Below, in pieces: positions 2,329 to 41,496 of a stretch of 64,000 bases of DNA; position 1 is the first letter of the stretch; each line of letters opens with the position of its first letter. Source of the DNA: an uncultured Clostridia bacterium (GTDB lineage: Bacteria > Bacillota > Clostridia > Christensenellales > CAG-138). The notes beneath the pieces were generated by a model, which saw nothing but the letters and a program-made list of their open reading frames with translations, had not been told where the DNA came from and ran no database searches. The DNA lies in NCBI GenBank assembly GCA_944366945.1, contig CALVWJ010000001.1, positions 1 to 64,000 of the forward strand, given 5' to 3'. The position numbers were made by a program, and so were the translations under genes.

Positions 2329-2332
2329 CAAT

Positions 2333-3075: not shown

Positions 3076-3297
3076 ATGAGTCCTACATTATCCAAAAGAG
3101 ACGCTTATCGGGTTATGTTTCGTGATTATCCCGATGTTGTATCTGTGGAGCAGATGAGTGAGATGTTGGGTATCTGCGAAAAATCTGCATATCGGCTTTT
3201 ACATGAAAACAAGATCGCTCATTTCAGAATTGGGCGCACCTATAAAATCCCGAAGCTTCACATTTTTGCCTACCTCAATGTAATCCATTGCGGCTGA
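3076..3297 (+). CDS. xis: Excisionase-family HTH DNA-binding protein (Xis-like)
   Basis: 73-aa HTH protein directly upstream of a tyrosine integrase, the canonical xis-int arrangement. Confidence 0.55.
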   Translation: MSPTLSKRDAYRVMFRDYPDVVSVEQMSEMLGICEKSAYRLLHENKIAHFRIGRTYKIPKLHIFAYLNVIHCG

Positions 3298-3390
3298 CTT
3301 CGTACCTTTGCGTCGCTATCTGCCCGTTGCTATACTGAAATCGTCAACAACGGGTGAATGTGGCTGCTACAACAAAAGGAGGATTATAAA

Positions 3391-4557: not shown

Positions 4558-4672
4558 CATTTCCCAAGGCAGAAAGGATACAGCTGAAATAACGGTACTT
4601 TCCTTAAAAGCGAGGGATTTGGGGGGATAAGAAAAGCCCGAAAACCTTAGATGTTATGCTGGTTTTCGGGCA

Positions 4673-4759
4673 TGGTGCCGGTGGTGGGACTCGAACCCAC
4701 ACGTTGTCGCCAACAACGGATTTTGAATCCGTCACGTCTGCCAATTCCATCACACCGGC
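4673..4759 (-). tRNA. tRNA-Leu (anticodon CAA), type II with long variable arm, CCA encoded
   Basis: Reverse complement reads GCCGGTGTGATGGAATTGGCAGACGTGACGGATTCAAAATCCGT...GTGGGTTCGAGTCCCACCACCGGCACCA. It has a 7-bp acceptor stem, an anticodon loop TTCAAAA and a GTTCGAGTC T-loop. Its 3' end is 115 bp from the int stop. Confidence 0.85.
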
Positions 4760-10519: not shown

Positions 10520-10544
10520 AAAGCGTAATTGAACGATGTTTGCG

Positions 10545-10795
10545 TTGAAGAAGAGGAGTACGCGCTCCATCCTGCATCAGAGAGACGGCTTCACCGGCTG
10601 CAAGGGCTGTCGGCGGGCAGGCGCGGAAGGTCGCTTCGGAGCATTCCGGCTGAGCGGAGGTATTCGGGTAAGCTGGAACGGGCGCGCCGCGTTAAGGCGT
10701 ATTTGAGGTGGGGCAGCCATTGCGCGCCCAACAAAGGTGGTACCGCGAGCCATTCGTCCTTTGAGGCGAACGGCTCTTTTTATTTTCAGTAGGTT
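10545..10795 (+). promoter_or_regulatory. T-box riboswitch leader upstream of valS
   Basis: Conserved T-box sequence AAAGGTGGTACCGCG at 10733-10748 overlaps a terminator hairpin (gagccattcg...cgaacggctc) followed by tttttatttt. Stem-I-like AG/GA-rich region upstream. Confidence 0.7.
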
Positions 10796-15689: not shown

Positions 15690-15789
15690 AAACGTTTTCA
15701 TGAAAAAGCGAGTTGCTTTCCGCACGCATAAAGGCGCTTGCAAAGGGCGCAGTTGTTCATGTGGAAGTTGCAGCATTTGAAAAGCGCGC

Positions 15790-15828
15790 CACGCCGGCAG
15801 GAAGAAATGCCTGCCGGCGTGTTTTTTT
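15790..15828 (+). terminator. Rho-independent terminator after the cupin gene
   Basis: cgccggcagg-aagaaatg-cctgccggcg followed by tgtttttttgg. Confidence 0.65.
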
Positions 15829-15877
15829 GGAATTGCCCGGAAAGAATAGGGGGAGAGTTTTTAGGAGGGCATGTGGA

Positions 15878-26321: not shown

Positions 26322-26684
26322 GTGAAAGTATCCCAAATTGCGCAGATCCTGCGGGCAGAAGTCCGTTGCGGGGAAGAAAACCTTGGGTTGGATATTCCCT
26401 ATGCCGTCGCAAGCGATATGATGAGCGATGTGCTGGTTTGCAACGACTCTGACCGCGTGCTGATTTCCGGGCTTTGCACAGTGCATACTGTACTTACGGC
26501 CCAGATTTTGGATTTGCGCGCCATCGTATTCGTGCGCGGCAAGCGCCCTACCCCGGAAATGATCGAGGTAGCAGAGGAAAATGGGATCACTGTCCTCTGC
26601 ACGGATATGAGCATGTTTAACACCTGCGGCGAGCTCTACAAGCATGGCATGAAAGGACGCGCGCGCCCGGATGGAACGGATTGA
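26322..26684 (+). CDS. DRTGG domain protein
   Basis: 120-aa protein with the arrangement LISGLCTVHTVLTAQILDLRAIVFVRG typical of DRTGG domains. Sits in the hydrogenase regulatory cluster. Confidence 0.55.
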   Translation: MKVSQIAQILRAEVRCGEENLGLDIPYAVASDMMSDVLVCNDSDRVLISGLCTVHTVLTAQILDLRAIVFVRGKRPTPEMIEVAEENGITVLCTDMSMFNTCGELYKHGMKGRARPDGTD

Positions 26685-27114
26685 AAAAGAGACGACCTAT
26701 CAGGAAACACGCAAAGTTGAGAAGGGGGATTTTGCTGCAGCAGGGCAGATTTCCGCTTCGTATAAAAACATGCTGAAACGGTTGGGAGTAGACTCCAAAG
26801 TGGTGCGCAGGCTTGCCATTGCTTCTTATGAAGCAGAAATCAATCTTGCGATTCACACGTTTGGCGGAAGTATGACCATTACGGTTTACCCCGACCACAT
26901 TGTTCTCGTCGTTAAGGATACGGGTCCGGGCATTGCAGATATCGGCCTTGCGATGCAGGAAGGCTATTCTACCGCATCGGAACAGGTGCGCATGCTGGGA
27001 TTTGGTGCCGGAATGGGACTTCCAAATATGAAACGCTGCTCGGATACTTTTGAGATCACCTCTGAGTTAGGAATTGGAACAACGATTGAAATGGGCTTTC
27101 TTTTAACTCCATAA
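26671..27114 (+). CDS. GHKL-type ATP-binding protein (anti-sigma-factor/RsbW-like Ser kinase fold)
   Basis: N, G1 and G2 boxes (EAEINLAIHT, VKDTGPGIAD, GFGAGMGLPN). Confidence 0.65.
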   Translation: MERIEKETTYQETRKVEKGDFAAAGQISASYKNMLKRLGVDSKVVRRLAIASYEAEINLAIHTFGGSMTITVYPDHIVLVVKDTGPGIADIGLAMQEGYSTASEQVRMLGFGAGMGLPNMKRCSDTFEITSELGIGTTIEMGFLLTP

Positions 27115-27175
27115 ATCGTAATGGAATCAATCCGCCTGGAGCGGTCCAGCGCACACGCTGGCAGAAGGAGTGCGT

Positions 27176-28459
27176 ATGGATAAAAAACAGATCTACCATA
27201 GCGTTAAACTGGAAAAGGACAAATGCGTAGGTTGCACAACATGCTTAAAGCGGTGCCCGATGGAATGCATCCGTGTGCGTAACGGAAAGGCGAGTATCCT
27301 TTACGAACTGTGTATTGATTGCGGCGTATGCGTGCGCATTTGCCCGCACAACGCGAAGGTCGCGCAGACGGATCCGATCAATGAGATCTTCCGTTACAAA
27401 CACCGCATTGCACTGCCTGCGCCAACGCTTTATGGGCAATTTCGAAACGTTACAAGCGTAGACCATGTACTCAGTGCCTTGCTTTCACTCGGGTTTAGCG
27501 ATGTGTTTGAGGTAGCACGCGCAGCGGATATTGTATCTGCCACCATGCGCGAGCTGCTGAAGACCACAACGGCCAGGCCGCTGATTTCTTCTGCTTGCCC
27601 TGCGGTCGTAGCTCTTATCCAGGTTCGTTTCCCGGAGTTGCTTCCAAATGTTGCCAACGTGCTTTCCCCCAAGGAGGTGGCAGGCAAGATGGCAAAGGAG
27701 GAATACTCCAGGGAGCACAATGTCCCTATTGAAGAAATTGGTGCGTTTTTTATCACCCCATGCCCGGCAAAAATGGCTAGCATCCATTCTGGACGGAGTG
27801 GCTATGTGGATGGCGCAATTGCAATTCAAGATATTTATGGTCTGCTTTCTTCCCAGCTTAGACAGCCTGTTTCGGAGAAAATTCGTAAGAAACGTCATGC
27901 GAGCTGGCAGGGCGTCAATTGGGCCACCTATGGCGGCGAGTGCGCATCGCTCCATCGTAGCAATACGCTTTCGGTGGATGGCATCCATAATGTAATTTAT
28001 GCGCTTGAGGAAATTGAAAACGGAAAGCTGGATGATCTTGAGTTCTTTGAAGGCTCTGCCTGTGAAGGCGGTTGTGTGGGTGGGCCGCTGGTGTTTGAAA
28101 ATGCCTTTGTTGCCCAAAACACGGTGCGCAAACTTGTGGAGCGCATGCGGGAAGAGGATGGCGATCTTCCGCCTGCCCTGCCTGCACCGCGGGATGACAT
28201 TTTGACGGATCCGTGTGCTCCGAGGGATACGCTAAAGCTTTCTGATAATATTGCTGAGGCAATCAGCATGATGGAGCGCATTGACGAACTTACAAAAACC
28301 TTTAAGGGGCTTGATTGCGGCTCCTGCGGCAGCCCAACCTGTCGCACGCTTGCAGAGGACATCGTTCTCGGGTATGCCAAGGAAGTGGACTGCGTGTTTA
28401 AGCTTAAGGAAAAGGTAGAGCAGCTTGCACGCCAGATGGTGGATTTGACCAACCTGTAG
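27176..28459 (+). CDS. HydS-like putative sensory [FeFe] hydrogenase: 2x[4Fe-4S] ferredoxin domain, degenerate H-cluster domain, C-terminal Cys4 motif
   Basis: N-terminal CVGCTTCLKRCP and CIDCGVCVRICP. H-cluster motifs altered relative to catalytic HydA: L1 SSACP instead of TSCCP, L2 TPCPAKM, L3 EGSACEGGCVGGP instead of MACPGGC. C-terminal CGSCGSPTC(x16)C. Confidence 0.75.
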   Translation: MDKKQIYHSVKLEKDKCVGCTTCLKRCPMECIRVRNGKASILYELCIDCGVCVRICPHNAKVAQTDPINEIFRYKHRIALPAPTLYGQFRNVTSVDHVLSALLSLGFSDVFEVARAADIVSATMRELLKTTTARPLISSACPAVVALIQVRFPELLPNVANVLSPKEVAGKMAKEEYSREHNVPIEEIGAFFITPCPAKMASIHSGRSGYVDGAIAIQDIYGLLSSQLRQPVSEKIRKKRHASWQGVNWATYGGECASLHRSNTLSVDGIHNVIYALEEIENGKLDDLEFFEGSACEGGCVGGPLVFENAFVAQNTVRKLVERMREEDGDLPPALPAPRDDILTDPCAPRDTLKLSDNIAEAISMMERIDELTKTFKGLDCGSCGSPTCRTLAEDIVLGYAKEVDCVFKLKEKVEQLARQMVDLTNL

Positions 28460-28487
28460 CAGGGAAGAAAACGTATGGGAGGCAAAC

Positions 28488-28823
28488 ATGACCGTTGCGC
28501 AATTGATAGAACCGCTGGAATTGACGTTGCTAACGCCGCAAACAAGCCTTGAACGCGAGGTAACAGGTGGCTGTGTCTGCGATCTGCTCAGCTTTGTGAT
28601 GGCGCGCGGGGATGCGGGCATGGCCTGGATCACTGTGCAGACACACTTGAACGTGATCGCGGTTGCTAGCTTGCATGAGTTTTCCTGCGTGATTGTGGCC
28701 GAAGGCTCTGCGGTGGAGCCGGAAACGCTTGCTAAAGCTACGGAAGAGGATATTCCGGTGCTGCGCAGCGCGCTTTCCGAATATACGCTCAGCGGCAGAC
28801 TGTATGCGCTAGGCGTGCGCTGA
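28488..28823 (+). CDS. DRTGG domain protein (second copy)
   Basis: 111 aa, similar architecture to 26322-26684 (WITVQTHLNVIAVASL...VIVAEG). Confidence 0.5.
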   Translation: MTVAQLIEPLELTLLTPQTSLEREVTGGCVCDLLSFVMARGDAGMAWITVQTHLNVIAVASLHEFSCVIVAEGSAVEPETLAKATEEDIPVLRSALSEYTLSGRLYALGVR

Positions 28824-28829
28824 AAAACG

Positions 28830-29537
28830 ATGAAAAGCCCGGTGGACCTGCACATCCACTCCTGCCTTTCGCCCTGCGCAGATGATGATATGACCCCCTG
28901 GAACATCGTGGGCATGGCAAAACTCAAAGGGCTGGCTGCCGTTGCTGTGTGCGATCACAACAGTGCGCGCAACCTACCTGCAGCATGCAAGGCGGGCAGG
29001 GAATACGGCGTGTGCGTGCTGCCCGGAATCGAGGTCACGAGCCGGGAGGATGTGCACCTGCTCTGCTATTTTGAAACGCTTAGCCAAGCCATGGATATGG
29101 GAATGCGGATCGAACGTGAACAGCCCCACATCAAGAACAAACCGGAGCTGTTTGGCCATCAGATCCTTGTGGATGAAGATGATACATTTTTGGGGGAGGC
29201 AGAACATCTCCTGCTTGCGGCGTGCAACCTTTCCATTTCGGATCTTGCGCAGGCTGCATGGGAGCTTGGCGGCGTGATGGTTCCGGCGCACATTAACAAG
29301 GGGGCGAACAGCCTTTTGCCGGTGCTGGGCATGCTGCCCGAAAATATCGCGTTGCCAACGGTGGAAATCTTTCGGACGGTGCCGCATCGCGCGGCGGGAA
29401 AGCTCTGCCTTCATGCGAGCGACGCACACACGCTTGTTGATATCCGCGAAGCGGAGGACGCCTGCGTGCTGGAACTTCAAGAACTTACGCCGGCAGCCCT
29501 TATCCAGGTGCTGCGCAAGGGAAAGGGGGAAACGTGA
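28830..29537 (+). CDS. PHP domain phosphoesterase
   Basis: N-terminal HIHS and DHN metal-binding motifs (VDLHIHSCLSPCADD...AVCDHNS) characteristic of the PHP family. Confidence 0.7.
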   Translation: MKSPVDLHIHSCLSPCADDDMTPWNIVGMAKLKGLAAVAVCDHNSARNLPAACKAGREYGVCVLPGIEVTSREDVHLLCYFETLSQAMDMGMRIEREQPHIKNKPELFGHQILVDEDDTFLGEAEHLLLAACNLSISDLAQAAWELGGVMVPAHINKGANSLLPVLGMLPENIALPTVEIFRTVPHRAAGKLCLHASDAHTLVDIREAEDACVLELQELTPAALIQVLRKGKGET

Positions 29538-30094
29538 AGGAGATTTCGCTGCATATACTTGACCTGGCACAAAATTCCATCCGTGCAGGTGCGGGCAATG
29601 TGCTGATCCGCATCGAGGAAGACAGCGCTGCGGATACCTTTTCGGTCTCCCTTACCGACGATGGCTGCGGCATGGGCGCGGAGATGGCAAAATCGGTGCA
29701 AAACCCGTTTGTGACCACGCGCACCACCCGCAAGGTCGGGTTGGGCATTCCGCTGTTTAAGGCTGGCTGCGAGAACTGCGCAGGCACATTTACGCTGGAA
29801 AGTGAATTGGGGCGCGGGACACGCATTGCCGGCACCTATCAGCGCAGCCATATTGACCGGCCGCCGCTTGGCAACATTGCGGACACCATTGCAATGCTCA
29901 TCGCGGCCAATCCAAAGCTTCACCTTAGATATGAGCATAAGCTCAACGGCGAGGAATACGCACTTGATACGGCGGAGATCCAGGAGATCCTGGGCGAGGT
30001 TCCGCTGGATACGCCGGAAGTGACCGCCTTTATCGCCGAATTTATCCATAGCAACGAATCAGAATTAGAATCAACGGAGGTACAGAAATCATGA
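29534..30094 (+). CDS. GHKL-type ATP-binding protein (second histidine-kinase-like ATPase)
   Basis: HATPase_c boxes (HILDLAQNSIRAG, LTDDGCGMG, GLGIPL). Translationally coupled to the PHP gene. Confidence 0.6.
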   Translation: MKEISLHILDLAQNSIRAGAGNVLIRIEEDSAADTFSVSLTDDGCGMGAEMAKSVQNPFVTTRTTRKVGLGIPLFKAGCENCAGTFTLESELGRGTRIAGTYQRSHIDRPPLGNIADTIAMLIAANPKLHLRYEHKLNGEEYALDTAEIQEILGEVPLDTPEVTAFIAEFIHSNESELESTEVQKS

Positions 30095-30459
30095 AGACAC
30101 TCAAAGAGTTAGAGGCGATCCGGCAGAAAACGCTCAATGAGCTCAATCTGCGCAAAAACCGCGAGGATGGTATTCGCGTGGTGGTCGGCCTTGCCACCTG
30201 CGGCATCGCGGCGGGCGCGCGCCCGGTCATGGCCGCCTTTGTGGACGAGGTGAATAAGCGCCAGCTTACCAACGTCACGGTTTCCCAAACTGGCTGCATC
30301 GGACTTTGCCGCTTGGAACCCATCGTGGAAGTCTATCTCCCAGGCCAGGAGAAGGTAACCTATTGCAAGGTAACCCCGGATCAAGTGGGGCGCATCGTAT
30401 CGGAGCATATCGTCAACGGGAACCCCGTTATGGAATACACCATCGGCAATTTTGAGTAA
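30091..30459 (+). CDS. Thioredoxin-like [2Fe-2S] ferredoxin domain protein
   Basis: Cys pattern LATCGIAAG...GCIGLCRLEP typical of the NuoE-like/HndB 2Fe-2S fold. Confidence 0.7.
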   Translation: MKTLKELEAIRQKTLNELNLRKNREDGIRVVVGLATCGIAAGARPVMAAFVDEVNKRQLTNVTVSQTGCIGLCRLEPIVEVYLPGQEKVTYCKVTPDQVGRIVSEHIVNGNPVMEYTIGNFE

Positions 30460-30493
30460 AAATCACTGAAGGACAAGAAGGAGAGTTAAGAAG

Positions 30494-32284
30494 ATGATCT
30501 ACAGGTCGCATGTGCTGGTCTGCGCGGGCACGGGTTGCACGTCCTCCAATTCCCTGCGCATCATTGAGAACTTCCATAAAAAACTGGAAGAAACCGGATA
30601 CGACAAGGAAGTCCAGGTCATCCGCACGGGCTGCTTCGGCCTTTGTGCGGCAGGCCCGATCGTTGTGGTTTACCCTGAGGGCGTATACTACAGCCACGTT
30701 AAACCGGAGGATGTTGAGGAGATCGTAAACGAGCACATCATCAAGGGACGCCCCGTGCAGCGCCTCATTTACAAGGAGCATGATGAAAGCGGCGTCAACA
30801 CCACGCTCAACGATTCTGATTTCTATAAAAAGCAGCACCGCATCGCCTTGCGCAACTGCGGCATGATCGACCCGGAAAACATCGATGAATATATTGCCTT
30901 TGACGGCTATAAAGCGCTCGGGAAGGTGCTCACCGAGATGACCCGCGATGAGGTTATCGACACCGTGATCCGCTCCGGCCTGCGCGGCCGTGGCGGCGGC
31001 GGATTCCCGACCGGCTTGAAGTGGAAATTTGCTAAAGCGCCCGAAAGCGATGTTAAATACGTTTGCTGCAATGCAGACGAAGGTGACCCAGGCGCATTCA
31101 TGGATCGTTCCGTTCTTGAAGGCGATCCGCATTCTGTGCTGGAAGCTATGACGATTGCGGGCTATGCAATTGGCGCACAGCAGGGCTATATTTATGTGCG
31201 TGCGGAATATCCCATCGCAGTAAAACGCCTGCGCGTTGCTATCGGGCAGGCCAGGGAATACGGCCTGCTGGGCGATAACATCATGGATACTGGCTTCAAA
31301 TTTGACATTGACCTCCGCCTTGGCAGCGGCGCATTCGTTTGCGGCGAAGAAACCGCGCTGCTTGCTTCCATTGAAGGCGGCCGCGGCGAGCCGCGCCCGC
31401 GCCCCCCATTCCCGGCGGTAAAGGGGCTTTTTGGCAAACCGACCCTGCTCAATAACGTAGAAACCTATGCAAACATCTGCCAGATCATCTTGAACGGGCC
31501 GGAATGGTTTGCCTCCATGGGCACCGAAAAGAGCAAGGGCACGAAGGTGTTCGCGCTGGGCGGAAAGATCAACAACACGGGCCTTGTAGAAATCCCCATG
31601 GGCACTACGCTGCGTGAAGTCATCTATGAGATTGGCGGCGGCATCCCGAACGGGAAAAAGTTTAAAGCCGCGCAAACCGGTGGCCCCTCCGGCGGTTGCA
31701 TCCCAGCACAACATTTGGATGTGCCTATCGATTATGACAACTTGATCTCCATTGGCTCCATGATGGGATCGGGCGGCATGATCGTTATGGACGAAGACAA
31801 CTGCATGGTGAACATCGCGAAATTCTTCCTTGAATTCACGGTGGATGAATCCTGCGGCAAATGCCCGCCCTGCCGAATCGGTACGCGGCGCATGCTCGAG
31901 ATGCTGGAAAAGATCACGAGCGGAAAGGGCGAACCGGGCGATATCGAAAAGCTGGAGAAGCTCGCTTACAACATCAAAGCGGCAGCTCTCTGCGGCCTTG
32001 GGCAGACCGCGCCGAACCCCGTGCTTTCTACCATCCGCTATTTCCGCGATGAATATGAAGCGCATATTTATGAAAAGCGTTGCCCGGCTGGCGTGTGCAA
32101 GGCACTGCTTCAGTATACCATCGATCCGGAAAAGTGCCGCGGGTGCAGCCTCTGCGCGCGCAAGTGCCCGGCTGGCGCAATCTCCGGTGAAATCAAGAAG
32201 CCGTTTGTGATCGATCCCGCGAAGTGCATTAAGTGCGGCGCGTGCATGGAAGCGTGCAAATTTGGTGCGATCAGCAAGAAATAA
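30494..32284 (+). CDS. NuoF-like NAD(P)H-binding flavoprotein subunit (HydB/HndC-type; N-terminal 2Fe-2S, FMN/NADH core, C-terminal 2x[4Fe-4S])
   Basis: GRGGGGFPTG (FMN/NADH motif), ESCGKCPPCR, C-terminal CRGCSLCARKCP and CIKCGACMEACK. Confidence 0.9.
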   Translation: MIYRSHVLVCAGTGCTSSNSLRIIENFHKKLEETGYDKEVQVIRTGCFGLCAAGPIVVVYPEGVYYSHVKPEDVEEIVNEHIIKGRPVQRLIYKEHDESGVNTTLNDSDFYKKQHRIALRNCGMIDPENIDEYIAFDGYKALGKVLTEMTRDEVIDTVIRSGLRGRGGGGFPTGLKWKFAKAPESDVKYVCCNADEGDPGAFMDRSVLEGDPHSVLEAMTIAGYAIGAQQGYIYVRAEYPIAVKRLRVAIGQAREYGLLGDNIMDTGFKFDIDLRLGSGAFVCGEETALLASIEGGRGEPRPRPPFPAVKGLFGKPTLLNNVETYANICQIILNGPEWFASMGTEKSKGTKVFALGGKINNTGLVEIPMGTTLREVIYEIGGGIPNGKKFKAAQTGGPSGGCIPAQHLDVPIDYDNLISIGSMMGSGGMIVMDEDNCMVNIAKFFLEFTVDESCGKCPPCRIGTRRMLEMLEKITSGKGEPGDIEKLEKLAYNIKAAALCGLGQTAPNPVLSTIRYFRDEYEAHIYEKRCPAGVCKALLQYTIDPEKCRGCSLCARKCPAGAISGEIKKPFVIDPAKCIKCGACMEACKFGAISKK

Positions 32285-33097: not shown

Positions 33098-33886
33098 ATG
33101 CACGAAACTATAAAGCTATCCATTGGGGTGTTTATTCCGTTCCTTGGGACGGTGCTCGGGGCTGCAACGGCCCTTTTTATGAAAAAAGCCATGCATGTGC
33201 GCTTGCAAAAGCTTCTGTTGGGCTTTGCGGCGGGGGTGATGATTGCGGCTTCCGTATGGTCATTGCTGATTCCCGCCATTGCGATGGCAGAAGCGGCAGG
33301 AAAGGTAGCCTGGGTGCCTGCGGCGACAGGTTTTTTGGTAGGGATCGGCTTCCTGCTCGCATTGGATACGTTGATCCCCCATCTGCATCTGAACGCTACA
33401 ATGCCGGAAGGGCGCCCCAGCATGCTGGAAAGGTCGCTTATGCTGGTGCTTGCGGTCACCTTGCATAATATTCCGGAAGGAATGGCAGTTGGCGTTGTGT
33501 TCGCCGGGATGCGCGCTGGAAATGAAGCGATCACAGCCGCTGGCGCGTTCGCGCTCGCCGCCGGGATCGCGATTCAAAATTTCCCGGAGGGCGCGATCAT
33601 CTCCATGCCCTTGGTGAACCTTGGTGTTTCGCGGAAAAAGGCGTTCGGCTATGGCGTTCTTTCCGGGGCTGTGGAGCCGATCGGCGCGGTGCTCACGATT
33701 TTGCTGACCTCCCTTGTAACGCCGATCCTGCCTTATATCCTGGCGTTTGCCGCAGGCGCGATGCTTTATGTTGTAATAGAAGAACTGATCCCGGAAGCGC
33801 AGCAAGGGGAACATTCGAATCTCGGCACCATTGGCGCGGCGTTGGGCTTTGCGCTGATGATGGTGCTGGATGTTGCGCTTGGATGA
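33098..33886 (+). CDS. ZIP family metal (Zn/Fe) transporter, ZupT-like
   Basis: GGAGGAAA RBS. 8 TM with HNIPEG and HN.PEGA motifs (LHNIPEGMAVG, IQNFPEGAIIS). Confidence 0.85.
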   Translation: MHETIKLSIGVFIPFLGTVLGAATALFMKKAMHVRLQKLLLGFAAGVMIAASVWSLLIPAIAMAEAAGKVAWVPAATGFLVGIGFLLALDTLIPHLHLNATMPEGRPSMLERSLMLVLAVTLHNIPEGMAVGVVFAGMRAGNEAITAAGAFALAAGIAIQNFPEGAIISMPLVNLGVSRKKAFGYGVLSGAVEPIGAVLTILLTSLVTPILPYILAFAAGAMLYVVIEELIPEAQQGEHSNLGTIGAALGFALMMVLDVALG

Positions 33887-34097
33887 AAAAACCAGAAAAA
33901 AGGAAAGAGCCCATCGCCATCTTCTGGCCGCCGGGCTCTTTTTCTGTCGTATCGTTTTTTGCTTTCAGCTTTTCGGCTCACGGGGCTGATGGCCCATGTT
34001 TGGCGTTTGGCCGCATCCAGGGCGCGCCGTGCCTTTTTGCTGAGTTTTTCCCTTGGGATAAACTGCTTTTTCATGAGATGTTTCCTCCGTTTTTAAA

Positions 34098-34898
34098 TTA
34101 AAGCTTATGTTCCATTTCCGCGCGCCAATGGAGGATCGCTTCAAGGACGCCGCCGCCGATGGCAAGCGCCTTATCGGAAACCGTGAAGCAATGCTCCCGC
34201 GCGCAACGCGGGTCAATATCGCCGGCTTTGGTACCAGCGGAGATGGAGATGCCGTCGGGCAGGATGCCGCGCAGGCAGCCTGCGATTTCCGCACGGAGTG
34301 GGACGCCATCCACATCTGCAACAATGGAGCCTGCGGTGACCATGGCCCCGATGGGGAAATGGCCATGAAATATGCCAGCGGCCGGCGCATAGAGCACGCG
34401 CTCGCGCGTATATCCTCCAACGTTGCCGGGAATGCCGGTATTGGGGAGGGCGGAACCTTCATAAATGCAGCGCCCAAGGGTATGCCCGCGCATCGTTTCG
34501 ATCACGCAGTGGCAGTCCACGCCTGCCGTAAAGCCCGGCCCCAGCGCAACGACGAGCGGCGCATCTGAAATGCGTGTACCGAGATTGCGCTTTGCAAGCA
34601 TCGCGTCGACGAGCACATCGGGATGGTATCGCGCGATGCTTGTTCCCGTGGGATCAACGATTACGGCCGGTACATGCGCATGAAGCGCCGCGCGCACCTC
34701 CGCTTCGGTTTGGCACAAATGGGAAGTTACGCTTTCTACTGTGGCAGAACCGCGGTAAACGGCGTCTGAAAATGCCACCGTACGCCGCACGGCAGTCGGC
34801 GCTGCAAGTTCGGTCAGAATCAATGAAAAGCCGCAGCGGTGCAGCCGCATGGCCACACCTGTTGCAAGGTCGCCTGCGCCGCGTATTAAAACCAGCAT
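34098..34898 (-). CDS. yqeB: YqeB family selenium-dependent molybdenum hydroxylase system protein
   Basis: N-terminal MLVLIRGAGDLATGVAMRLHRCGF Rossmann-like start as I recall it for the YqeB family. GAGAGGA RBS. Adjacent to a yqeC-like gene. Confidence 0.6.
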   Translation of the reverse strand: MLVLIRGAGDLATGVAMRLHRCGFSLILTELAAPTAVRRTVAFSDAVYRGSATVESVTSHLCQTEAEVRAALHAHVPAVIVDPTGTSIARYHPDVLVDAMLAKRNLGTRISDAPLVVALGPGFTAGVDCHCVIETMRGHTLGRCIYEGSALPNTGIPGNVGGYTRERVLYAPAAGIFHGHFPIGAMVTAGSIVADVDGVPLRAEIAGCLRGILPDGISISAGTKAGDIDPRCAREHCFTVSDKALAIGGGVLEAILHWRAEMEHKL

Positions 34899-35581
34899 CC
34901 AATCACATCCTCTCGTAATGCGCAAACGGCGGCGGGGTATCCTGCCGCACGAAGCTCCTTTGCAATAGCGTCCCCCTGCGCGTGCAGTTCCGGCGTATCC
35001 GCCTGGTTGAGCAGCGCTACCGCGGGGCATGCTGCGCTGCTATGCTGGAACGCTCGAAGCATAAGGCGCACAATATCTTCTTCCACAATGCAATGCGCCG
35101 GATCCATGCCGGCTTCCACGCACCGGTGCAGCACTTCGCCGGCCGGCTTGCCAAGCGCAGAAAGGCCGGCAATCTGGATGACAAGCCCTGTATTTGCAGG
35201 GATACAGGGTTCAGAATCCCTGTGCCATTTCAGCGGCATGTGCCGTGAACCGTCCGCCTCGCAAAGCACATAGTCGAACGCTGCTGCCGCAGCCGTAAGA
35301 TATTGCGGCGCAAGCCCGGTCATTTTGCCGTTGCCGTTTGGGTATCCCATAAGGACGAGCTGCGCACGCTGTGCGGCAGCGGCGGCTTCTTCCGGTGTAG
35401 CAGGTGCGCAAAATGTTGTGCCTGCCGGAGGGGGAAAGGCAAGGTGCGTCGTGGTAGTAAGCAAAACAGAGGCACCAGCTTCGGCAAGCCATTGCCCAAG
35501 CTTGAAAAGGAGCGTCGTTTTGCCACCGCCCCCAATGATTGCCGTAATCTTTGGCAGGCTGCAGGGAAATGAAAACCGCAT
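34886..35581 (-). CDS. yqeC: YqeC family selenium-dependent hydroxylase accessory protein (P-loop)
   Basis: ITAIIGGGGKTTLLFKL P-loop at the N-terminus. Size and position next to yqeB match the YqeC marker family. Confidence 0.6.
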   Translation of the reverse strand: MRFSFPCSLPKITAIIGGGGKTTLLFKLGQWLAEAGASVLLTTTTHLAFPPPAGTTFCAPATPEEAAAAAQRAQLVLMGYPNGNGKMTGLAPQYLTAAAAAFDYVLCEADGSRHMPLKWHRDSEPCIPANTGLVIQIAGLSALGKPAGEVLHRCVEAGMDPAHCIVEEDIVRLMLRAFQHSSAACPAVALLNQADTPELHAQGDAIAKELRAAGYPAAVCALREDVIGCWF

Positions 35582-36122
35582 GAGGCTCTCCTGTTCGCAC
35601 GCAAGTTTTTAATTATCATACTATATTTTTCGGGAAATACCAATGGGATGCGCGCAAAGCTTTGGTATTTTAGGAAGGGAAATATCCTCCGGCACTTCAA
35701 AGCTTTTGCTCTCTCTGAGCAGCCCTGCCACCGCAAAGAAAAGAGCGAATGCTAGGCACAAAACCGAAATCCTTGCCCAAAACGCGTTACACCCAAATAT
35801 AAAAAGAGGCCTTAGCTTTTGGGCTCTGCGCAGGGTCTCGGACATCCCCCTTAACGGGAATGAACGCATATGGAAATTGAGGTTGCACCGGAGCATGCAG
35901 AAAAGCTGCGAGAAAACTGGGCGCGCAGATTCCGCTTTTAAAGACGATGCGAAAGAATATGCATGCCTGGCTTTCTTGAAACTGCTGCGCGCTTTAGGGC
36001 AGCTCTCCTACAACAACGGGCTACAGTAAGGTATTGCCGAAAAACACCATACTTTGGATGGACAAAGCGTTCACAATCTGCTATAATGAAATAGCGTTAT
36101 TCTCAAGAAAAAATAACGGTCG

Positions 36123-37238
36123 GTGTACCATATGCATGTTTCACGCAAAAACAGATCAATCAAACCGCATCAACGCTGCATGCACGCCCCTTCCAGGATG
36201 TTGTTCCTGCTTGCGCTGTTTCTGCTTGCGTTGTTTTTGGCTTCTTTCGCGTTTGGGCGTTATGGCGTTCCAATTTGGGATGTGGCGCGCATTCTTGTTT
36301 ATCGATGCGCCGCGCTCGTAGAAGATGGGCTAAGCTGGTTGCTGCAACGCACCGTTGCGTTCCTGCCGGAAACCGTGCCGTGGGCGGCACAAATGGAAAC
36401 GGTTGTGATCAACATTCGCCTGCCGCGCATTTTGCTTGCCTGCATGGTGGGATGCTGCCTTTCGGCTGCGGGCGCATCCTACCAGGGTGTATTTCAAAAC
36501 CCCATGGCATCGCCGGATCTGTTGGGCGCTTCCTCCGGCGCAGCATTCGGCGCAGCGCTCGCAATTCTTTACGGCGCATCAAACGAGGGCGTTTCACTTG
36601 CCGCATTTGCAGCAAGCCTCATCACGGTTCTGCTCGTGTTTTTGCTTGCACAGCGCGCGCCGGGGCATCGGGTTGTGAATTTGATCCTGGGTGGCATTAT
36701 GATCGGCTCCCTGTTTACGGCAGCAACATCCTATGTGAAGCTCGTAGCGGATCCAACGAACCAGCTCCCCGCGATCACCTATTGGCTGATGGGAAGCCTT
36801 TCCGGCGCGAAGCTTTCAGAGCTTGGGTTTGCGGCTGTGCCTATGGCGCTCGGCTGCATTCCATTGCTGTTAATCCGCTGGCGCATCAATCTTTTAACGC
36901 TGGGGGATGAGGAGGCGCAGACGCTTGGGGTGAACACGAACCTGCTGCGCTTGGCCGTTATCCTCTGTGCAACACTTGTTACGGCGGCGAGCATTGCCGT
37001 TTCGGGCATGATAGGCTGGGTTGGCCTAGTGATCCCGCATTTTGCGCGGAAGCTTGTGGGGAGCAATTACCGCTACCTTATGCCTGCTTCCATGCTGCTA
37101 GGCGCCGCATTTTTGCTTGTGGTGGATAATGTTTCGCGCAACCTGCTTGCGGTGGAGATCCCTATCGGCATCTTGACTGCCTTTGTGGGCGCGCCCTTCT
37201 TCATTTATTTGCTTATGAGGCGGGAGAAAACGCTGTGA
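36123..37238 (+). CDS. FecCD family ABC transporter permease (siderophore/heme/cobalamin type); exact start uncertain (alternative ATGs at 36180 and 36198)
   Basis: 9-10 TM with the conserved FecCD region (LGDEEAQTLGVN...GMIGWVGLVIPH). Confidence 0.8.
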   Translation: MYHMHVSRKNRSIKPHQRCMHAPSRMLFLLALFLLALFLASFAFGRYGVPIWDVARILVYRCAALVEDGLSWLLQRTVAFLPETVPWAAQMETVVINIRLPRILLACMVGCCLSAAGASYQGVFQNPMASPDLLGASSGAAFGAALAILYGASNEGVSLAAFAASLITVLLVFLLAQRAPGHRVVNLILGGIMIGSLFTAATSYVKLVADPTNQLPAITYWLMGSLSGAKLSELGFAAVPMALGCIPLLLIRWRINLLTLGDEEAQTLGVNTNLLRLAVILCATLVTAASIAVSGMIGWVGLVIPHFARKLVGSNYRYLMPASMLLGAAFLLVVDNVSRNLLAVEIPIGILTAFVGAPFFIYLLMRREKTL

Positions 37239-38014
37239 GCATTGTGGTGGAACAACTGCATTTTGCCTATGGCCAGCGCTCCGTGCTGCGCGGGGTGAGC
37301 TTTTCGGCGGAGGATGGGCGCCTTCTTGCAGTGCTCGGGCCCAACGGCGCTGGAAAAACCACGTTGTTTCGGTGCATCCTTGGCCTAATGAGCCGCTATG
37401 AAGGGCGCATTCTCGTGGACGGAACGGATGCGCGCACGCTGCCCGCCCGCGCGCTCGCGCACCGCATTGCCTATATCCCACAGGTGCATGGGCAAGCATT
37501 TTCCTATTCCGTGCTGGAGATGGTGCTTATGGGCACCACCCATGGCCTTTCGCCGCTTGCCGTGCCAAAGGAGAAGGAGAAAGCAGCAGGGCTCGCGGCA
37601 TTGGAAAGGCTCGGAATTGCACAGCTTGCGCAAAAGCCTTTTTCCAAGCTTTCCGGTGGGGAACAGCAGCTTGTTCTTATTGCGCGTGCGCTTGCGCAGG
37701 CAGCGCATACGCTCGTGATGGATGAACCCACGGCAAGCCTTGACTATGGCAACCAGGTACGGGTGCTGGAGCATGCGCGCGCGCTTGCGCGGGAAGGTTA
37801 CGCGGTGGTGTTTTCCACGCACAACCCGCAACACGCTCTCTCTTATGCGGATGGGGTGCTTGCGCTGTTGGAAGGGGAAACTGCGGCCTTGGGAGATCCA
37901 TCGGAGGTTATGGATGCAGCGCTGCTTTACCGCCTTTACGGCGTGCACACGGAGTTCCTAAAAACGGGAAGCGGGATTTTGATCGCGCCGCGCGTTGGGG
38001 AGGGAAATGCATGA
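37235..38014 (+). CDS. ABC transporter ATP-binding protein (FecE-like)
   Basis: Walker A GPNGAGKTT, signature LSGGEQQ, Walker B LVMDEPT. Confidence 0.85.
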   Translation: MSIVVEQLHFAYGQRSVLRGVSFSAEDGRLLAVLGPNGAGKTTLFRCILGLMSRYEGRILVDGTDARTLPARALAHRIAYIPQVHGQAFSYSVLEMVLMGTTHGLSPLAVPKEKEKAAGLAALERLGIAQLAQKPFSKLSGGEQQLVLIARALAQAAHTLVMDEPTASLDYGNQVRVLEHARALAREGYAVVFSTHNPQHALSYADGVLALLEGETAALGDPSEVMDAALLYRLYGVHTEFLKTGSGILIAPRVGEGNA

Positions 38015-38730
38015 AATTTGAATGGACAGAGGAAACGATCCGTTTTCGTGAAGATGCTGCAGTGCGCGTGCAATTCGATGCGGCGATTGCACAGCATATT
38101 CTTCCGTTCCTTCCAGAGAATGCCCATGTTTGTGATGCTGGCTGTGGCCTCGGCTTCCTAAGTCTTGCGCTTGCGCCGCATTGCCGCCGCATTACCGCGG
38201 TGGACGCAAGCTCCGCTGCGCTTGCAGTGCTTGCACGCAACGCAGTGCGCATGGGCTATGATAACATTCAAATTGTCCAAGGCGATTTGTTCGCCCAGCG
38301 GCCCACCCCCCGCTATGATGCGATGGTATTCTGCTTTTTCGGGCACACGAAGGAAACGCTCAAAGCGGTGCGCACGCAGTGCAAGGGGCGCGCCATCCTT
38401 GTGAAGCGGGACCACATAGAACATCGTTTTGCGGCTGGAAATCAGCCGGCCCAGCGGCTGAATTTCCAAACGGCATGCCAGGAGCTCACCGCGCTCCATG
38501 TGCCGCATACGACGCAAACGTTTTCCCTTGAAATGGGGCAACCATTTCGCTCGCGCGAAGAAGTGGCGCGTTTTTTTGCAATCTATGGTGGAAGCGGCGC
38601 GCACTCTGCTATGACGCAGATGGAAGAAGTTATAAAAACCGGGGATTTGGAATTTCCCTATTATTTTTCCGCCAGATGCGCACTGGGCTTGATTGTGCTG
38701 GATGCGGGAGAGATTCCCGATTTGCCATAA
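38011..38730 (+). CDS. Class I SAM-dependent methyltransferase embedded in the ABC transporter operon
   Basis: Motif I VCDAGCGLGFLSLALA. Motif post-I ITAVDAS. Overlapping stop/start with flanking genes. Confidence 0.6.
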   Translation: MKFEWTEETIRFREDAAVRVQFDAAIAQHILPFLPENAHVCDAGCGLGFLSLALAPHCRRITAVDASSAALAVLARNAVRMGYDNIQIVQGDLFAQRPTPRYDAMVFCFFGHTKETLKAVRTQCKGRAILVKRDHIEHRFAAGNQPAQRLNFQTACQELTALHVPHTTQTFSLEMGQPFRSREEVARFFAIYGGSGAHSAMTQMEEVIKTGDLEFPYYFSARCALGLIVLDAGEIPDLP

Positions 38731-38754
38731 ACCTTGTTTTTGGAGGATACTCGT

Positions 38755-39912
38755 ATGAAAAAGTTGATCGCTTTGGTGCTAGCGGCTCTGTTGGTTGCAT
38801 CGCTCGCGGGATGCACCGAGGATACGCTTGTGCCCACGGATACGCCGGCGCCCGTTGATACGCTCGCACCGGCGCAAATAGAAGCGCCGGAAGAAACCAC
38901 GCCCCCAGAGGAGGTTGCGCCTAATACACGCACCTTTACGGATTCCATTGGGCGCACGGTAGAGCTGCCAGCAGAAATTGAAAAAGTCGCGGTTTCCGGA
39001 CCGCTGGCGCAGATTGTGCTGTTTGCGCTCTGCCCGGATAAACTCGTTGGCATTGCATCTGCATGGGATACATCCGCAGAGCAGTATCTTGCAACGGAGT
39101 ACTATAACCTTCCGGAACTTGGCCAACTTTATGGTGGGCAAGGGGAACTGAACCTGGAAACCCTGCTTGCAAGCGGGGCCGAGATCGTGATCGATGTGGG
39201 CGAGCCAAAGGATAGCGCAGTGGAGGACCTTGACGCGCTGCAGGAGCAGACGGGGATCCCGTTTGTGCATGTTACGGCAACGACCGAAACGATGGGGGAT
39301 GCTTACCGCAAACTGGGCGAGCTGGTCGGCATGCCCGATGCCGCGGAGGAACTTGCTGCATATTGCAATAGAATCTATGCGCAAACGCTTGCGCTTGCAG
39401 AGCGCGTTGAAAAGGTCAACCTGCTTTACTGTTTGGGGGATGCCGGCCTAAACGTGATTGCGCAGGGAAGCTATCATGCGGAGATCATCGACCTGCTTTC
39501 CAACAATCTGGCCGTCGTGGAGGCGCCTTCCAGCAAGGGGACAGGCAATGAAGTGGACATGGAACAGATCCTCCTCTGGAATCCGGATGTGATCCTGTTT
39601 GCGCCCGACAGCATCTATGCTACCGTGGGGGAAGACGCAACCTGGCAGGAGGTTGCCGCCATCCGGAACGGCACATATTATGAGGTCCCGCTGGGGCCCT
39701 ACAATTGGATGGGGTTCCCGCCTTCCGTGCAGCGGTACCTCGGCATGCTCTGGATGGCGAAACTCCTCTACCCCGAGGCGGCCACTTATGATCTTTATAC
39801 GGAAGTAGCTGCATATTTCAAGCTGTTTTATCACAGCGACCTTACCGAAGCGCAATATGATGCCTTGGTGGAGCATTCTATCGGGGCTGCGGCTGAAGCG
39901 CCTGCCGCATAA
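38755..39912 (+). CDS. ABC transporter substrate-binding lipoprotein, TroA-like class III fold
   Basis: GGAGGA RBS. Lipobox LAGC. Pro/Thr-rich linker. Two-lobe binding-protein pattern typical of FecB/BtuF-type SBPs. Confidence 0.7.
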   Translation: MKKLIALVLAALLVASLAGCTEDTLVPTDTPAPVDTLAPAQIEAPEETTPPEEVAPNTRTFTDSIGRTVELPAEIEKVAVSGPLAQIVLFALCPDKLVGIASAWDTSAEQYLATEYYNLPELGQLYGGQGELNLETLLASGAEIVIDVGEPKDSAVEDLDALQEQTGIPFVHVTATTETMGDAYRKLGELVGMPDAAEELAAYCNRIYAQTLALAERVEKVNLLYCLGDAGLNVIAQGSYHAEIIDLLSNNLAVVEAPSSKGTGNEVDMEQILLWNPDVILFAPDSIYATVGEDATWQEVAAIRNGTYYEVPLGPYNWMGFPPSVQRYLGMLWMAKLLYPEAATYDLYTEVAAYFKLFYHSDLTEAQYDALVEHSIGAAAEAPAA

Positions 39913-39916
39913 TGCT

Positions 39917-40945
39917 ATGAAAGAATTGTTTGAAGCGCTGCGGGATGCAATCGCTCGCGGCGAGGATGCGGTACTCTGCACGATTGTTGCAAGCTCCGGC
40001 TCCACACCGCGGGGCAGCGGTGCGAGAATGGCAGTTTTTGCGGATGGCACAACGCGCGGGACTGTCGGCGGCGGCGCGGTGGAGCATGAGAGCGTTGCGC
40101 TTGCCCGGCAGGCGCTTGCACGCCGATGCGCGCTTACTCAAGGATTCCACCTTGCACCGAACCAGGTTGCAGACATCGGCATGGTATGCGGCGGGCAGGT
40201 AGTGGTTGCGTTCCAATTCTTTGCCGGTGGGGATGCGGCTGCGCAGGCATTGTTTTCGTATCTTGCAGCGCTGTTTCAAATGCACCGGGATGCGTGGTTG
40301 GTCACGAAGCTTGCAAACGGTGTCGCCGTAGAGTTGGGCGTTTATACGCGCGAAGAAGGACTTCTGTTTGCAGAGGATATTCCAGAGGCGGAGATTCTCC
40401 CGCTCCTTGGGCCGCGCGTAGCGCGCACGCAAGGGGAACCCTGCTATTGCGTGGAACCGCTGACCCGCGCCGGGTTCGTTTATGTGTTCGGCGGAGGACA
40501 TGTTTCGCAGGCGCTTGTGCCAGTGCTCTCCAAGATCGAGTTTTCCATAGTGGTATATGAAGACAGGGAACGCTTTGCGAGCCCTGCGCGTTTCCCCGAT
40601 GCAGCACGCATCCTCGTTGCGCCATTTGCGGAGGCGGCTGCCCGCGTTTCCATAACGCCGAATGATTATGCCGTTATTATGACGCGGGGGCATCAAGCGG
40701 ACTTTGCAGTGCTTGTACAGATGCTTCGAACCCCTGCCTCATACATCGGCATGATCGGAAGCCGGCATAAAATCGCAGCAACACATGCGCGGCTGCTTGC
40801 GGCTGGCATCCCGGAGGCGGAATTTGCGCGTATCCATTCGCCGATCGGACTGCCCATCGGCGCGGAAACGCCGGAAGAGATTGCGATCAGCATTGCGGCG
40901 GAACTGATCGCGCATCGTGCCAATGCGCGGAGGGGAGAGGCATGA
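39917..40945 (+). CDS. xdhC: XdhC/CoxI family molybdenum cofactor insertion/sulfuration accessory protein
   Basis: N-terminal XdhC_CoxI region (AVLCTIVASSGSTPRGSGARM) and C-terminal Rossmann domain (VFGGGHVSQALV...IGSR.K). Confidence 0.7.
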   Translation: MKELFEALRDAIARGEDAVLCTIVASSGSTPRGSGARMAVFADGTTRGTVGGGAVEHESVALARQALARRCALTQGFHLAPNQVADIGMVCGGQVVVAFQFFAGGDAAAQALFSYLAALFQMHRDAWLVTKLANGVAVELGVYTREEGLLFAEDIPEAEILPLLGPRVARTQGEPCYCVEPLTRAGFVYVFGGGHVSQALVPVLSKIEFSIVVYEDRERFASPARFPDAARILVAPFAEAAARVSITPNDYAVIMTRGHQADFAVLVQMLRTPASYIGMIGSRHKIAATHARLLAAGIPEAEFARIHSPIGLPIGAETPEEIAISIAAELIAHRANARRGEA

Positions 40946-41496
40946 TACAAAAGCGCCATATCCTTTTGACCGGCGCGCGCGGTGCCGGAAAGAGTACGCT
41001 GATACGAAAGCTCTGCGCTGCAAGCGGCATGCCGGTTTATGGATTCGTTACAAAACGGGAAGCAGCGGATGCCGCAGGATTTCATCCTATTTATATTCAC
41101 CCAGCAGGCGCTTTGGAGGCCGACCGTCGCTACGAGGCAGCAAACCTAACGGGAACCTGCAACAGCAAAGTGCATAGGGTACACCTTGAAGCATTCGATG
41201 TTTTGGGCGCAGCATATCTAAATGCCGCGCAGCCGGGCGGCATTCTTGTAATGGATGAGCTGGGCTTTATGGAGGCGGAAGCGCAGGCGTTCCAAAAGGC
41301 TGTGTTCGATGCCCTTGCAGGCACGGTGCCCGTGCTTGCAGCGATAAAGGATCGGGAGGATGTGCCGTTTTTGCAGGCGGTGCGCGCGCATCCAAATGCA
41401 CTGCTTTATACCGTCACACCAAAAACAAGGGATATGCTCTTTGAAACACTGCTCCCGCAGGTGCTGGCTTGGCGGGAAACAGATCCGTTACAGTAA
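40942..41496 (+). CDS. THEP1-like nucleoside-triphosphatase (P-loop NTPase)
   Basis: Walker A ILLTGARGAGKSTLI and Walker B VMDELG. Start overlaps the xdhC stop. Confidence 0.55.
   Translation: MIQKRHILLTGARGAGKSTLIRKLCAASGMPVYGFVTKREAADAAGFHPIYIHPAGALEADRRYEAANLTGTCNSKVHRVHLEAFDVLGAAYLNAAQPGGILVMDELGFMEAEAQAFQKAVFDALAGTVPVLAAIKDREDVPFLQAVRAHPNALLYTVTPKTRDMLFETLLPQVLAWRETDPLQ

Follow-up and report, generated by a model that had tools for sequence, protein, structure and literature searches.

Molybdenum (Mo) uptake by bacteria is usually credited to the ModABC, WtpABC and TupABC transporters, while MolBC-A passes for a peculiarity of Haemophilus. Experiments have established MolBC-A (HI1470/HI1471/HI1472 of Haemophilus influenzae) as a type II ATP-binding cassette (ABC) importer of molybdate and tungstate (PMC4031551, PMC4245157), and its expression is repressed by molybdate (PMC4031551). 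Two further described systems are relevant here, the selenium-dependent gene set reported in 2008, which in Enterococcus faecalis also includes a ModE gene beside xdhC (PMC2432076), and the ModE regulon of Escherichia coli, in which the ModE box precedes mod transport and moa genes. The locus described in this work lies in a stretch of 64,000 nucleotides (the window) of the forward strand of contig CALVWJ010000001.1 (GCA_944366945.1), from an uncultured Clostridia bacterium of CAG-138, and comprises an importer operon that also encodes a methyltransferase, an XdhC-family chaperone and a nucleoside triphosphatase (NTPase), all under a Mo-type operator, so that it probably supplies Mo to enzymes encoded elsewhere. 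The reading preferred here, with a probability of roughly 60% and drawn from sequence comparison, is that of an operon induced by Mo starvation that would import molybdate or tungstate in the manner of MolBC-A and, through XdhC and the NTPase, assist the maturation of xanthine oxidase-family enzymes encoded elsewhere.

The importer operon beside MolBC-A

The locus consists of two divergent transcription units, with yqeC and yqeB on the minus strand and six tightly packed genes on the plus strand. Its features are the following, where SAM stands for S-adenosylmethionine and SBP for substrate-binding protein:

34098-34898, minus strand: yqeB (TIGR03309, 357 bits)
34886-35581, minus strand: yqeC (TIGR03172, 169 bits; PF19842, 132 bits)
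36059-36087, plus strand: sigma-70-type promoter of the importer operon (TGGACA, 17 nucleotides, TG-n-TATAAT)
36095-36118, strandless: ModE-type operator ('Mo box') CGTTATTCTCAAGAAAAAATAACG, a palindrome at the promoter
36180-37238, plus strand: FecCD permease of a type II ABC importer, MolB-like (PF01032, 297 bits)
37235-38014, plus strand: ABC ATPase without a TOBE domain (ABC_tran)
38011-38730, plus strand: orphan class I SAM methyltransferase (generic SAM-binding matches only)
38755-39912, plus strand: class III (Peripla_BP_2) SBP, a lipoprotein (PF01497; lipobox LAGC)
39917-40945 (most likely start), plus strand: XdhC-family molybdenum cofactor chaperone (XdhC_CoxI, 70 bits; XdhC_C, 152 bits)
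40942-41496, plus strand: THEP1-like P-loop NTPase (NTPase_1; PF03266, 89 bits)

The six plus-strand genes are packed as one operon, which spans positions 36059-41496 including the promoter. Start and stop codons overlap at the permease/ATPase junction (GTGA) and at the ATPase/methyltransferase and XdhC/NTPase junctions (both ATGA), and the remaining gaps measure 24 nucleotides between the methyltransferase and SBP genes, with a GGAGGA ribosome-binding site, and 4 nucleotides between the SBP and XdhC genes. On the other strand yqeC overlaps the start of yqeB by 13 nucleotides, the pair being divergent from the importer operon. An earlier sequence-only reading of the window had named YqeB, YqeC, XdhC, a THEP1-like NTPase, a FecCD permease, an ATPase, a class III SBP and a class I SAM methyltransferase; all of these genes and family assignments are confirmed, as is the translational coupling of the NTPase to xdhC through the ATGA overlap. 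Two corrections concern starts: position 33098, given as that of the region, is the start of a ZIP/ZupT-like transporter absent from its text, and xdhC most likely begins at 39917 (MKELFEAL..., 342 residues) and not at 39857.

Like MolBC-A, the operon encodes a class III SBP, a permease of the FecCD type and a small ATPase that lacks a TOBE domain. MolB (HI1471) is the solved structure that the permease matches best, at 224.8 bits, ahead of HmuU (183), FhuB (179) and BtuC (129), and the best single-domain solved relative of the ATPase is MolC (HI1470), at 121.7 bits, both proteins being homologous to their MolBC-A counterparts. The significant matches of the SBP in the PDB are 4pag, 4ovk, 4hn9 and 2etv, all uncharacterised structural-genomics proteins, and then MolA (HI1472, 3psa), which ranks behind these four with an E value of 4e-12, 49 bits and about 22% identity; TM0189 is also among the closest solved relatives. 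The AlphaFold2 model of the SBP is poor (predicted local distance difference test score, pLDDT, of 68), with its conserved loops disordered, and Foldseek on this low-confidence model gave the same ranking as the sequence search. No match to BtuF was obtained for the SBP, either in the PDB sequence search or in Foldseek. The importer class, which the sequence-only reading had considered unexpected for Mo, is not so, because MolBC-A is an established type II molybdate/tungstate importer (PMC4031551) and its closest solved relative, the permease and the SBP being related to MolB and MolA, respectively. The predicted cargo is molybdate or tungstate, for which we see about even odds. MolBC-A is repressed by molybdate, and here a ModE-type box overlaps the promoter. 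In contrast, MolBC-A comes without a SAM methyltransferase, XdhC or THEP1-like NTPase, whereas the operon described here has all three, and its SBP is a Gram-positive lipoprotein.

The Mo box and the genes behind it

The promoter, TGGACA-17-TGcTATAAT, agrees with the consensus at 11 of 12 positions and has an extended -10 element. A 24-bp palindrome, CGTTATTCT-N6-AAAATAACG, starts 8 bp past the -10 box and lies over the likely transcription start; it is the sole match in the window, where 0.06 would be expected by chance. The ModE box of E. coli is ATCGNTATATA-N6-TATATANCGAT, and a site predicted for Geobacter modDABC has identical outer half-sites and span (PMC545781). In the window, too, the palindrome covers 24 bp and its outer half-sites are CGnTAT/ATAnCG (CGTTAT-N12-ATAACG against CGNTAT-N12-ATANCG in E. 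coli), while the inner half-site reads TCT/AGA here and ATA/TAT in E. coli. A search of the 600-nucleotide gap upstream of the permease gene with Rfam gave no riboswitch, at the gathering score or at E values up to 10, and neither a cobalamin nor a molybdenum cofactor (Moco) riboswitch was detected in the window or in seven diverse loci.

An alignment of 26 members of the methyltransferase family was used to scan one genome per species, which gave 80 loci (loci and contigs are labelled by L-numbers, e.g. L032, L089 and L206). Even very distant loci can be aligned at the -35 box, the -10 box and the palindrome. The 1.41 Mb of sequence in these loci contain 38 sites that differ from CGTTAT-N12-ATAACG at one position or none, where chance would give about 3; some 29 of the 38 stand directly upstream of the permease gene, and the consensus of the box across loci is CGTTATTCT-N6-AGAATAACG. 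The loci from Fusibacter and Flexilinea are devoid of a Mo box.

A scan of public metagenome contigs located the box in at least 120 contigs. Among the 120 listed, a gene for a ModE N-terminal domain lies at most 300 bp from the box in 29 and yqeB in 10, and one contig carries the cassette itself. The operons behind the box were verified with NCBIfam: the box is followed by modE-N and then by probable modA, modB and modC/wtpC-like genes, each just under its cut-off (L206); by yqeB, mog/moaB, moaA, xdhC and modABC (L182); by moaA alone (L154, and the same by eye in L210 and L106); and by a MOSC-MoaB fusion (L115), and it stands at a modA gene divergent from a molybdopterin oxidoreductase (L142, with L146 alike). 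Since the same box precedes mod, moa and yqeB-xdhC operons elsewhere, it is very probably the operator of a Mo regulon of which the cassette is a member. The overlap of this ModE-type operator with the transcription start would likewise place the operon of the window in the Mo regulon, and a ModE-type protein would repress it from the box. Membership of this regulon, with a function in Mo acquisition or cofactor maturation, is very probable.

Two neighbours of the importer genes in other loci also relate to Mo. In two Christensenellaceae loci (L032 and L025) a Mop molbindin of 74 residues (TIGR00638, 95.8 bits; cut-off 55) is encoded divergently from the permease; Mop molbindin stores free molybdate. 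In L063 the gene of a 109-residue ModE-domain protein immediately precedes the cassette, and the box lies between this gene and that of the permease. The Mop genes and a ModE fusion in L032 were tblastn leads confirmed with Pfam and NCBIfam, and the fusion then led to the gene in L063. The regulators associated with the box are proteins of about 110-134 residues with the N-terminal domain of ModE only, or fusions, and usually come without Mop domains, unlike ModE of E. coli.

Three further observations concern these elements. The fusion in L032 (1898-2830, minus strand) joins a MocA/DVU_1551-like nucleotidyltransferase to a ModE helix-turn-helix domain, and another in L099 (1596-2537, minus strand) joins a ModE helix-turn-helix to the C-terminal part of a ModC/WtpC-like ATPase. 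L147 carries at 1536-4694 a second, more distant FecCD-type importer with the same Mo box upstream and without methyltransferase, XdhC or NTPase, whose permease is 43% and whose SBP is 23% identical to those of the window.

A recurrent cassette with XdhC, an NTPase and a methyltransferase

The 80 loci come from Christensenellales, Oscillospiraceae, Fusibacter, Peptococcaceae, Flexilinea, Dehalococcoidales and a few bins labelled Bacteroidales. In the 56 loci with at least 4 kb on either side of the methyltransferase gene, here called complete, all three ABC genes are present in 54, XdhC in 43 and the NTPase in 47, and the exact order permease-ATPase-methyltransferase-SBP-XdhC-NTPase is kept in 29. 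The methyltransferase gene stands between the ATPase and SBP genes in most loci. Other arrangements are methyltransferase-XdhC-NTPase-permease-ATPase-SBP in Flexilinea, an XdhC gene placed between the permease and ATPase genes in L089, and methyltransferase-XdhC-NTPase without a transporter in four loci. The genomic surroundings of the cassette are unrelated between lineages, and clustering of all open reading frames (ORFs) in the 80 loci gave no universal neighbour beyond the cassette, only IclR (14 loci), YqeC (13) and cob genes (7-8). The conserved unit is permease-ATPase-methyltransferase-SBP-XdhC-NTPase, a self-contained module across Clostridia and some Chloroflexi with yqeB and yqeC as neighbours in some lineages only, given that its partners recur amid unrelated surroundings and that yqeB rarely adjoins it.

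This conservation already contradicts a chance neighbourhood, in which an ordinary iron-siderophore importer would lie beside unrelated XdhC, NTPase and methyltransferase genes. Source annotations do label the SBP 'iron complex transport system substrate-binding protein', and several of its fold neighbours bind iron or siderophores. However, these partners are found together in several gene orders in both Clostridia and Chloroflexi, their start and stop codons overlap, and the operator is a Mo box and not a Fur box, so that this is the least probable of the readings considered.

In L078, and similarly in L056, the region upstream of the cassette (4552-7837 in L078) encodes an IclR regulator, a 161-residue protein, a Big_2 protein and a MotA/ExbB-like protein; the 161-residue protein of L078 comes close to the threshold of the molybdopterin-binding oxidoreductase domain without reaching it (PF00174, 22 bits against 24). 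Both contigs are binned as Bacteroidales, where a binning error is possible.

The methyltransferase of the window gave generic SAM-binding matches only, over residues 25-135, in NCBIfam, Pfam and the PDB sequence search. Its homologues align over their full length at about 40-65% identity. The alignment of 26 sequences revealed a C-terminal half of the family's own, with an invariant MGQP core inside an EMGQPFRS motif, as well as two invariant cysteines (Cys41 and Cys124) and two others, Cys45 and Cys108, present in at least 90% of the sequences; the position of catalytic motif IV reads FCFFG. The AlphaFold2 model is of high quality (pLDDT 91) and Foldseek retrieves only generic small-molecule methyltransferases, while the closest PDB match of the SAM-binding domain is CbiT (E 3e-7). 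The likeness to TehB or UbiE put forward in the sequence-only reading is one of size only: the TehB model NF008405 gives 19.4 bits against a cut-off of 218, and no UbiE model matched. Neither is the protein HemK. The protein belongs to an orphan family of class I SAM-dependent methyltransferases.

Both domains of the XdhC family are present in the chaperone, the N-terminal XdhC_CoxI domain (PF02625, 70.4 bits) and the Rossmann domain XdhC_C (PF13478, 152 bits), and its PDB relatives are 2we7 and 3on5. It falls just under the equivalog cut-offs of NF045664 (aldehyde oxidoreductase maturation factor; 323.8 against 350) and TIGR02964 (152.5 against 161.6), and is a near relative of these equivalogs and not a member. 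The NTPase scores 88.8 bits against 23.9 with PF03266, has a P-loop GARGAGKST at residues 11-19, lies below the equivalog NF010248 (77 bits against 156) and is related in the PDB to 1ye8 (Aquifex THEP1, E 1.5e-13) and 2i3b (human NTPCR). No distant contexts were seen among the best 120 of its 494 homologues (E up to 1e-8), all of which are at least 54% identical and appear to belong to the cassette. A comparable pairing is found in the CoxD/CoxE/CoxF/CoxI proteins of Mo-Cu carbon monoxide dehydrogenase, where an XdhC-family protein and a P-loop ATPase finish a xanthine oxidase-family active site; CoxD is, however, a MoxR-type AAA+ ATPase, unlike the THEP1-type NTPase, and Cox maturation proceeds without a transporter or a methyltransferase.

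In the proposed mechanism, Mo scarcity would switch on the operon, and the MolBC-A-like importer, formed by the lipoprotein SBP, the FecCD permease and the ATPase, would take up molybdate, tungstate or another small Mo species. The XdhC chaperone and the THEP1-like NTPase would then receive the Mo cofactor, finish it and insert it into xanthine oxidase-family hydroxylases encoded elsewhere, and the SAM methyltransferase may have its substrate in the cytoplasm, either the imported species or the cofactor bound to XdhC; we infer the direction of this hand-off, as well as any role of the methyltransferase and the NTPase. In the lineage of the window the divergent yqeC-yqeB pair may add a selenium-dependent variant of this maturation.

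Several points weigh against this proposal. Uptake of molybdate gives no reason for a strictly linked methyltransferase, and within the Oscillospiraceae there is a lineage with a cobamide-remodelling operon next to the cassette. Identity of the SBP to MolA and to the nearest solved structures is just about 22-25%, and the pLDDT of the SBP model is only 68. The ModE-domain proteins score 57-66 bits, under the TIGR00637 cut-off of 98.5, and no ModE-domain gene is present in the 64-kb window. Finally, an IclR-family regulator stands beside the cassette in 14 of the 80 loci and in L087, with the box degenerate or absent, and IclR regulators usually sense organic molecules.

The presence of a Moco-binding chaperone gene inside a transporter operon, in L089 even between the permease and ATPase genes, allows for a different cargo. 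The type II importer could take up preformed Moco, molybdopterin or chelated Mo from other microbes or food, in the gut or in digesters, XdhC would bind it, and the NTPase and the methyltransferase would process or recondition it. To our knowledge no bacterial importer of Moco has been described, which we count against such salvage, and the nearest relative of the permease and the SBP is MolBC-A, an oxyanion importer, and not a cofactor importer. In addition, Mop molbindin adjoins the cassette in L025 and L032, and XdhC is missing from about a quarter of the complete loci. On the other hand, the median identity across loci is highest for the SBP (72%, against 50% for XdhC, 50% for the NTPase and 43% for the methyltransferase), an unusual conservation that would be expected of a fixed complex ligand, and control within the Mo regulon fits salvage too. 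The usual cargoes of type II importers are large cofactors, among them B12, heme and siderophores (PMC4245157). Hundreds of prokaryotes have been reported with proteins of the xanthine oxidase or dimethyl sulfoxide reductase family and yet no complete Moco pathway and no known Mo transporter (PMC6147048); salvage fits these orphan molybdoenzymes and, if true, would explain their active cofactor. We consider salvage unlikely, although it is the most interesting of the alternatives and the others are less likely still.

One of these others is that of a BtuFCD-type importer whose accessory proteins act on cobamides. The top NCBIfam models are indeed those of archaeal BtuC for the permease (246 bits against a cut-off of 461) and of a corrinoid ABC ATPase for the ATPase (211 against 537), both below cut-off, and CbiT is the methyltransferase's match noted above. 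Moreover, as the chief point for this reading, in eight Oscillospiraceae loci the whole cassette, or its methyltransferase-XdhC-NTPase part, is contiguous with an operon of CbiR-like, CobT, CobU, CobS and CobC genes, with a DUF4430 gene nearby. Against this, the permease is less similar to BtuC than to its other solved relatives, and the SBP has no match to BtuF; no cobalamin riboswitch was found in the window or the seven other loci, one of them cob-adjacent; and the Mo regulon and the Mop and ModE neighbours are left unexplained. The cob-adjacent importer retains an operator remnant of its own, a half-degenerate Mo box between yqeC and the permease gene, for which reason the cob operon and the importer are probably separate transcripts. 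The corrinoid reading is very improbable.

The cob-adjacent loci themselves (L058, L064, L065, L074, L076, L077, L082 and L084, at about 2.5-9.9 kb in each) deserve a brief description. Their CbiR-like protein is of the AP_endonuc_2 family, and the DUF4430 gene lies upstream in L058, L064 and L076. The cob operon ends in a bona fide yqeC (TIGR03172, 172 bits) that overlaps cobC and stays with the cob genes in an inverted block (L077), which suggests a possible role of YqeC outside selenium-dependent Mo hydroxylases.

No description of the cassette was found in the literature, of which part was covered. Each component family is already known, and the transporter class has a characterised Mo-transporting member; what appears to be undescribed is the stable association of the importer with an orphan methyltransferase, XdhC and a THEP1-type NTPase, the occurrence of this set in a wide range of anaerobes, and its predicted Mo-box control by proteins with the N-terminal domain of ModE only. 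To judge from the cassette, importers like MolBC-A are widespread among Clostridia of the gut and of digesters and among some Chloroflexi, in all of which they would belong to the Mo regulon and be joined genetically to proteins of cofactor maturation. The cassette also offers three testable objects: an orphan family of methyltransferases with a link to Mo handling, bacterial THEP1-type NTPases placed for the first time in a functional context, and a defined Mo-box operator with a ModE protein reduced to its N-terminal domain. As the breakdown of purines and uric acid by gut bacteria depends on selenium- and Mo-containing hydroxylases, the cassette bears on this process and on the source of the cofactor of orphan molybdoenzymes.

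The selenium genes and other features of the window

YqeB is a marker of selenium-dependent Mo hydroxylase maturation. The TIGRFAM check proposed in the sequence-only reading places both proteins well above their cut-offs, YqeB with 357.1 bits against 220 (TIGR03309) over the full length of the model and YqeC, a P-loop accessory protein, with 169.2 bits against 73 (TIGR03172) and 131.6 bits against 27.6 (PF19842). In contigs of the same species yqeB is called as a gene of 266 residues. Among the complete loci, however, yqeB adjoins the cassette in 5 of 56, and a YqeC-family gene lies near it in 13 of the 80 loci, sometimes within a cobamide operon. Both are accessory neighbours of the cassette in some lineages only, and the selenium link is lineage-specific because their own link to it is. 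The tie proposed earlier between the importer and methyltransferase genes and the selenium-Mo cofactor pathway stands in part: the conserved unit is linked to Mo cofactor biology and apparently uncharacterised, whereas a general link to YqeB and YqeC is not retained.

Shared with the selenium-dependent gene set reported in 2008 are yqeB, yqeC and an XdhC close to the NF045664 type, and the Mo box of the cassette also precedes yqeB-xdhC clusters in other contigs. In contrast, there is no hydroxylase, selD, MocA or SirA-like gene near the cassette of the window, its XdhC gene sits in a transporter operon, and in most lineages the cassette has no adjoining yqeB or yqeC. As the sequence-only reading had noted for 20 kb on either side, no xanthine dehydrogenase-type subunit, selD or moa/moe gene is present; the set inspected comprised called genes and large ORFs from the whole 64 kb.

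The bona fide yqeB and yqeC that flank the cassette here and in close relatives could also mean that a compound of selenium or another chalcogen is imported and then methylated by the methyltransferase to feed, with YqeB and YqeC, a labile selenium-Mo cofactor. The yqeB-xdhC clusters behind the Mo box elsewhere are consistent with this, as are the conserved cysteines of the methyltransferase and the thiol S-methyltransferases among its fold neighbours. The scarcity of adjacent yqeB genes (5 of 56) argues against it, together with the absence of selD or any other selenium gene from the 64-kb window and the score of the methyltransferase with the TehB model (19 bits against 218). The verified neighbours and regulon are related to Mo and not specific to selenium, save for yqeB, yqeC and a lone tRNA-Sec gene in L042. 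Nothing indicates the chalcogen substrate that the sequence-only reading had contemplated, the evidence relevant to the substrate being Mo-related (the ModE-type operator and the Mop and ModE-domain neighbours), and chalcogen uptake is very improbable. The tRNA-Sec gene just mentioned (4397-4489, minus strand) lies 5.5 kb upstream of the cassette in a Peptococcaceae metagenome-assembled genome.

On its upstream side the locus of the window is flanked by a GH94 glucan synthase, a radical SAM gene and a hydrogenase-like sensor cluster, and on its downstream side by an M20 peptidase and then HxlR, LysE, iron-containing alcohol dehydrogenase (Fe-ADH), trigger factor, ClpX, Lon and an mraZ-murE block. 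The M20 peptidase is not a YgeY-type selenium-linked hydrolase (59 bits against a cut-off of 321). The ZIP/ZupT-like metal transporter (33098-33886, plus strand), a gene separate from the cassette, matches PF02535 and scores 130 bits with the ZupT model against a cut-off of 252; such a transporter is seen beside the cassette in two other loci only, L007, the closest relative, and L013, where it is 34% identical and on the opposite strand. In the 600-nucleotide gap that separates yqeC from the permease gene, a 128-residue ORF (35643-36029, plus strand) counts as a gene in the annotation of some contigs of the same species and has no Pfam family; it is probably not a real gene, the surrounding DNA being unconserved beyond close relatives.

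Further upstream, an ORF of 2655 residues (15738-23705, plus strand) contains GH94 catalytic, supersandwich and glucoamylase-like domains and resembles a cyclic beta-1,2-glucan synthase or phosphorylase. The cluster at about 26671-32284 (plus strand), with a histidine kinase-like ATPase, a protein with [FeFe]-hydrogenase large-subunit and Fer4 domains, a PHP-domain protein and a NuoE/NuoF-like flavoprotein of 596 residues, probably encodes a sensory or bifurcating hydrogenase module. A T-box leader is present at 10536-10764 (plus strand; RF00230, 101.8 bits), the downstream gene being presumably that of an aminoacyl-tRNA synthetase. Near the start of the window a pemK RNA motif (2831-2908, plus strand; RF02913, 57.8 bits) and a tRNA-Leu(CAA) gene (4673-4759, minus strand) enclose an ORF of 399 residues (3358-4557), and this stretch could mark an integrated element.

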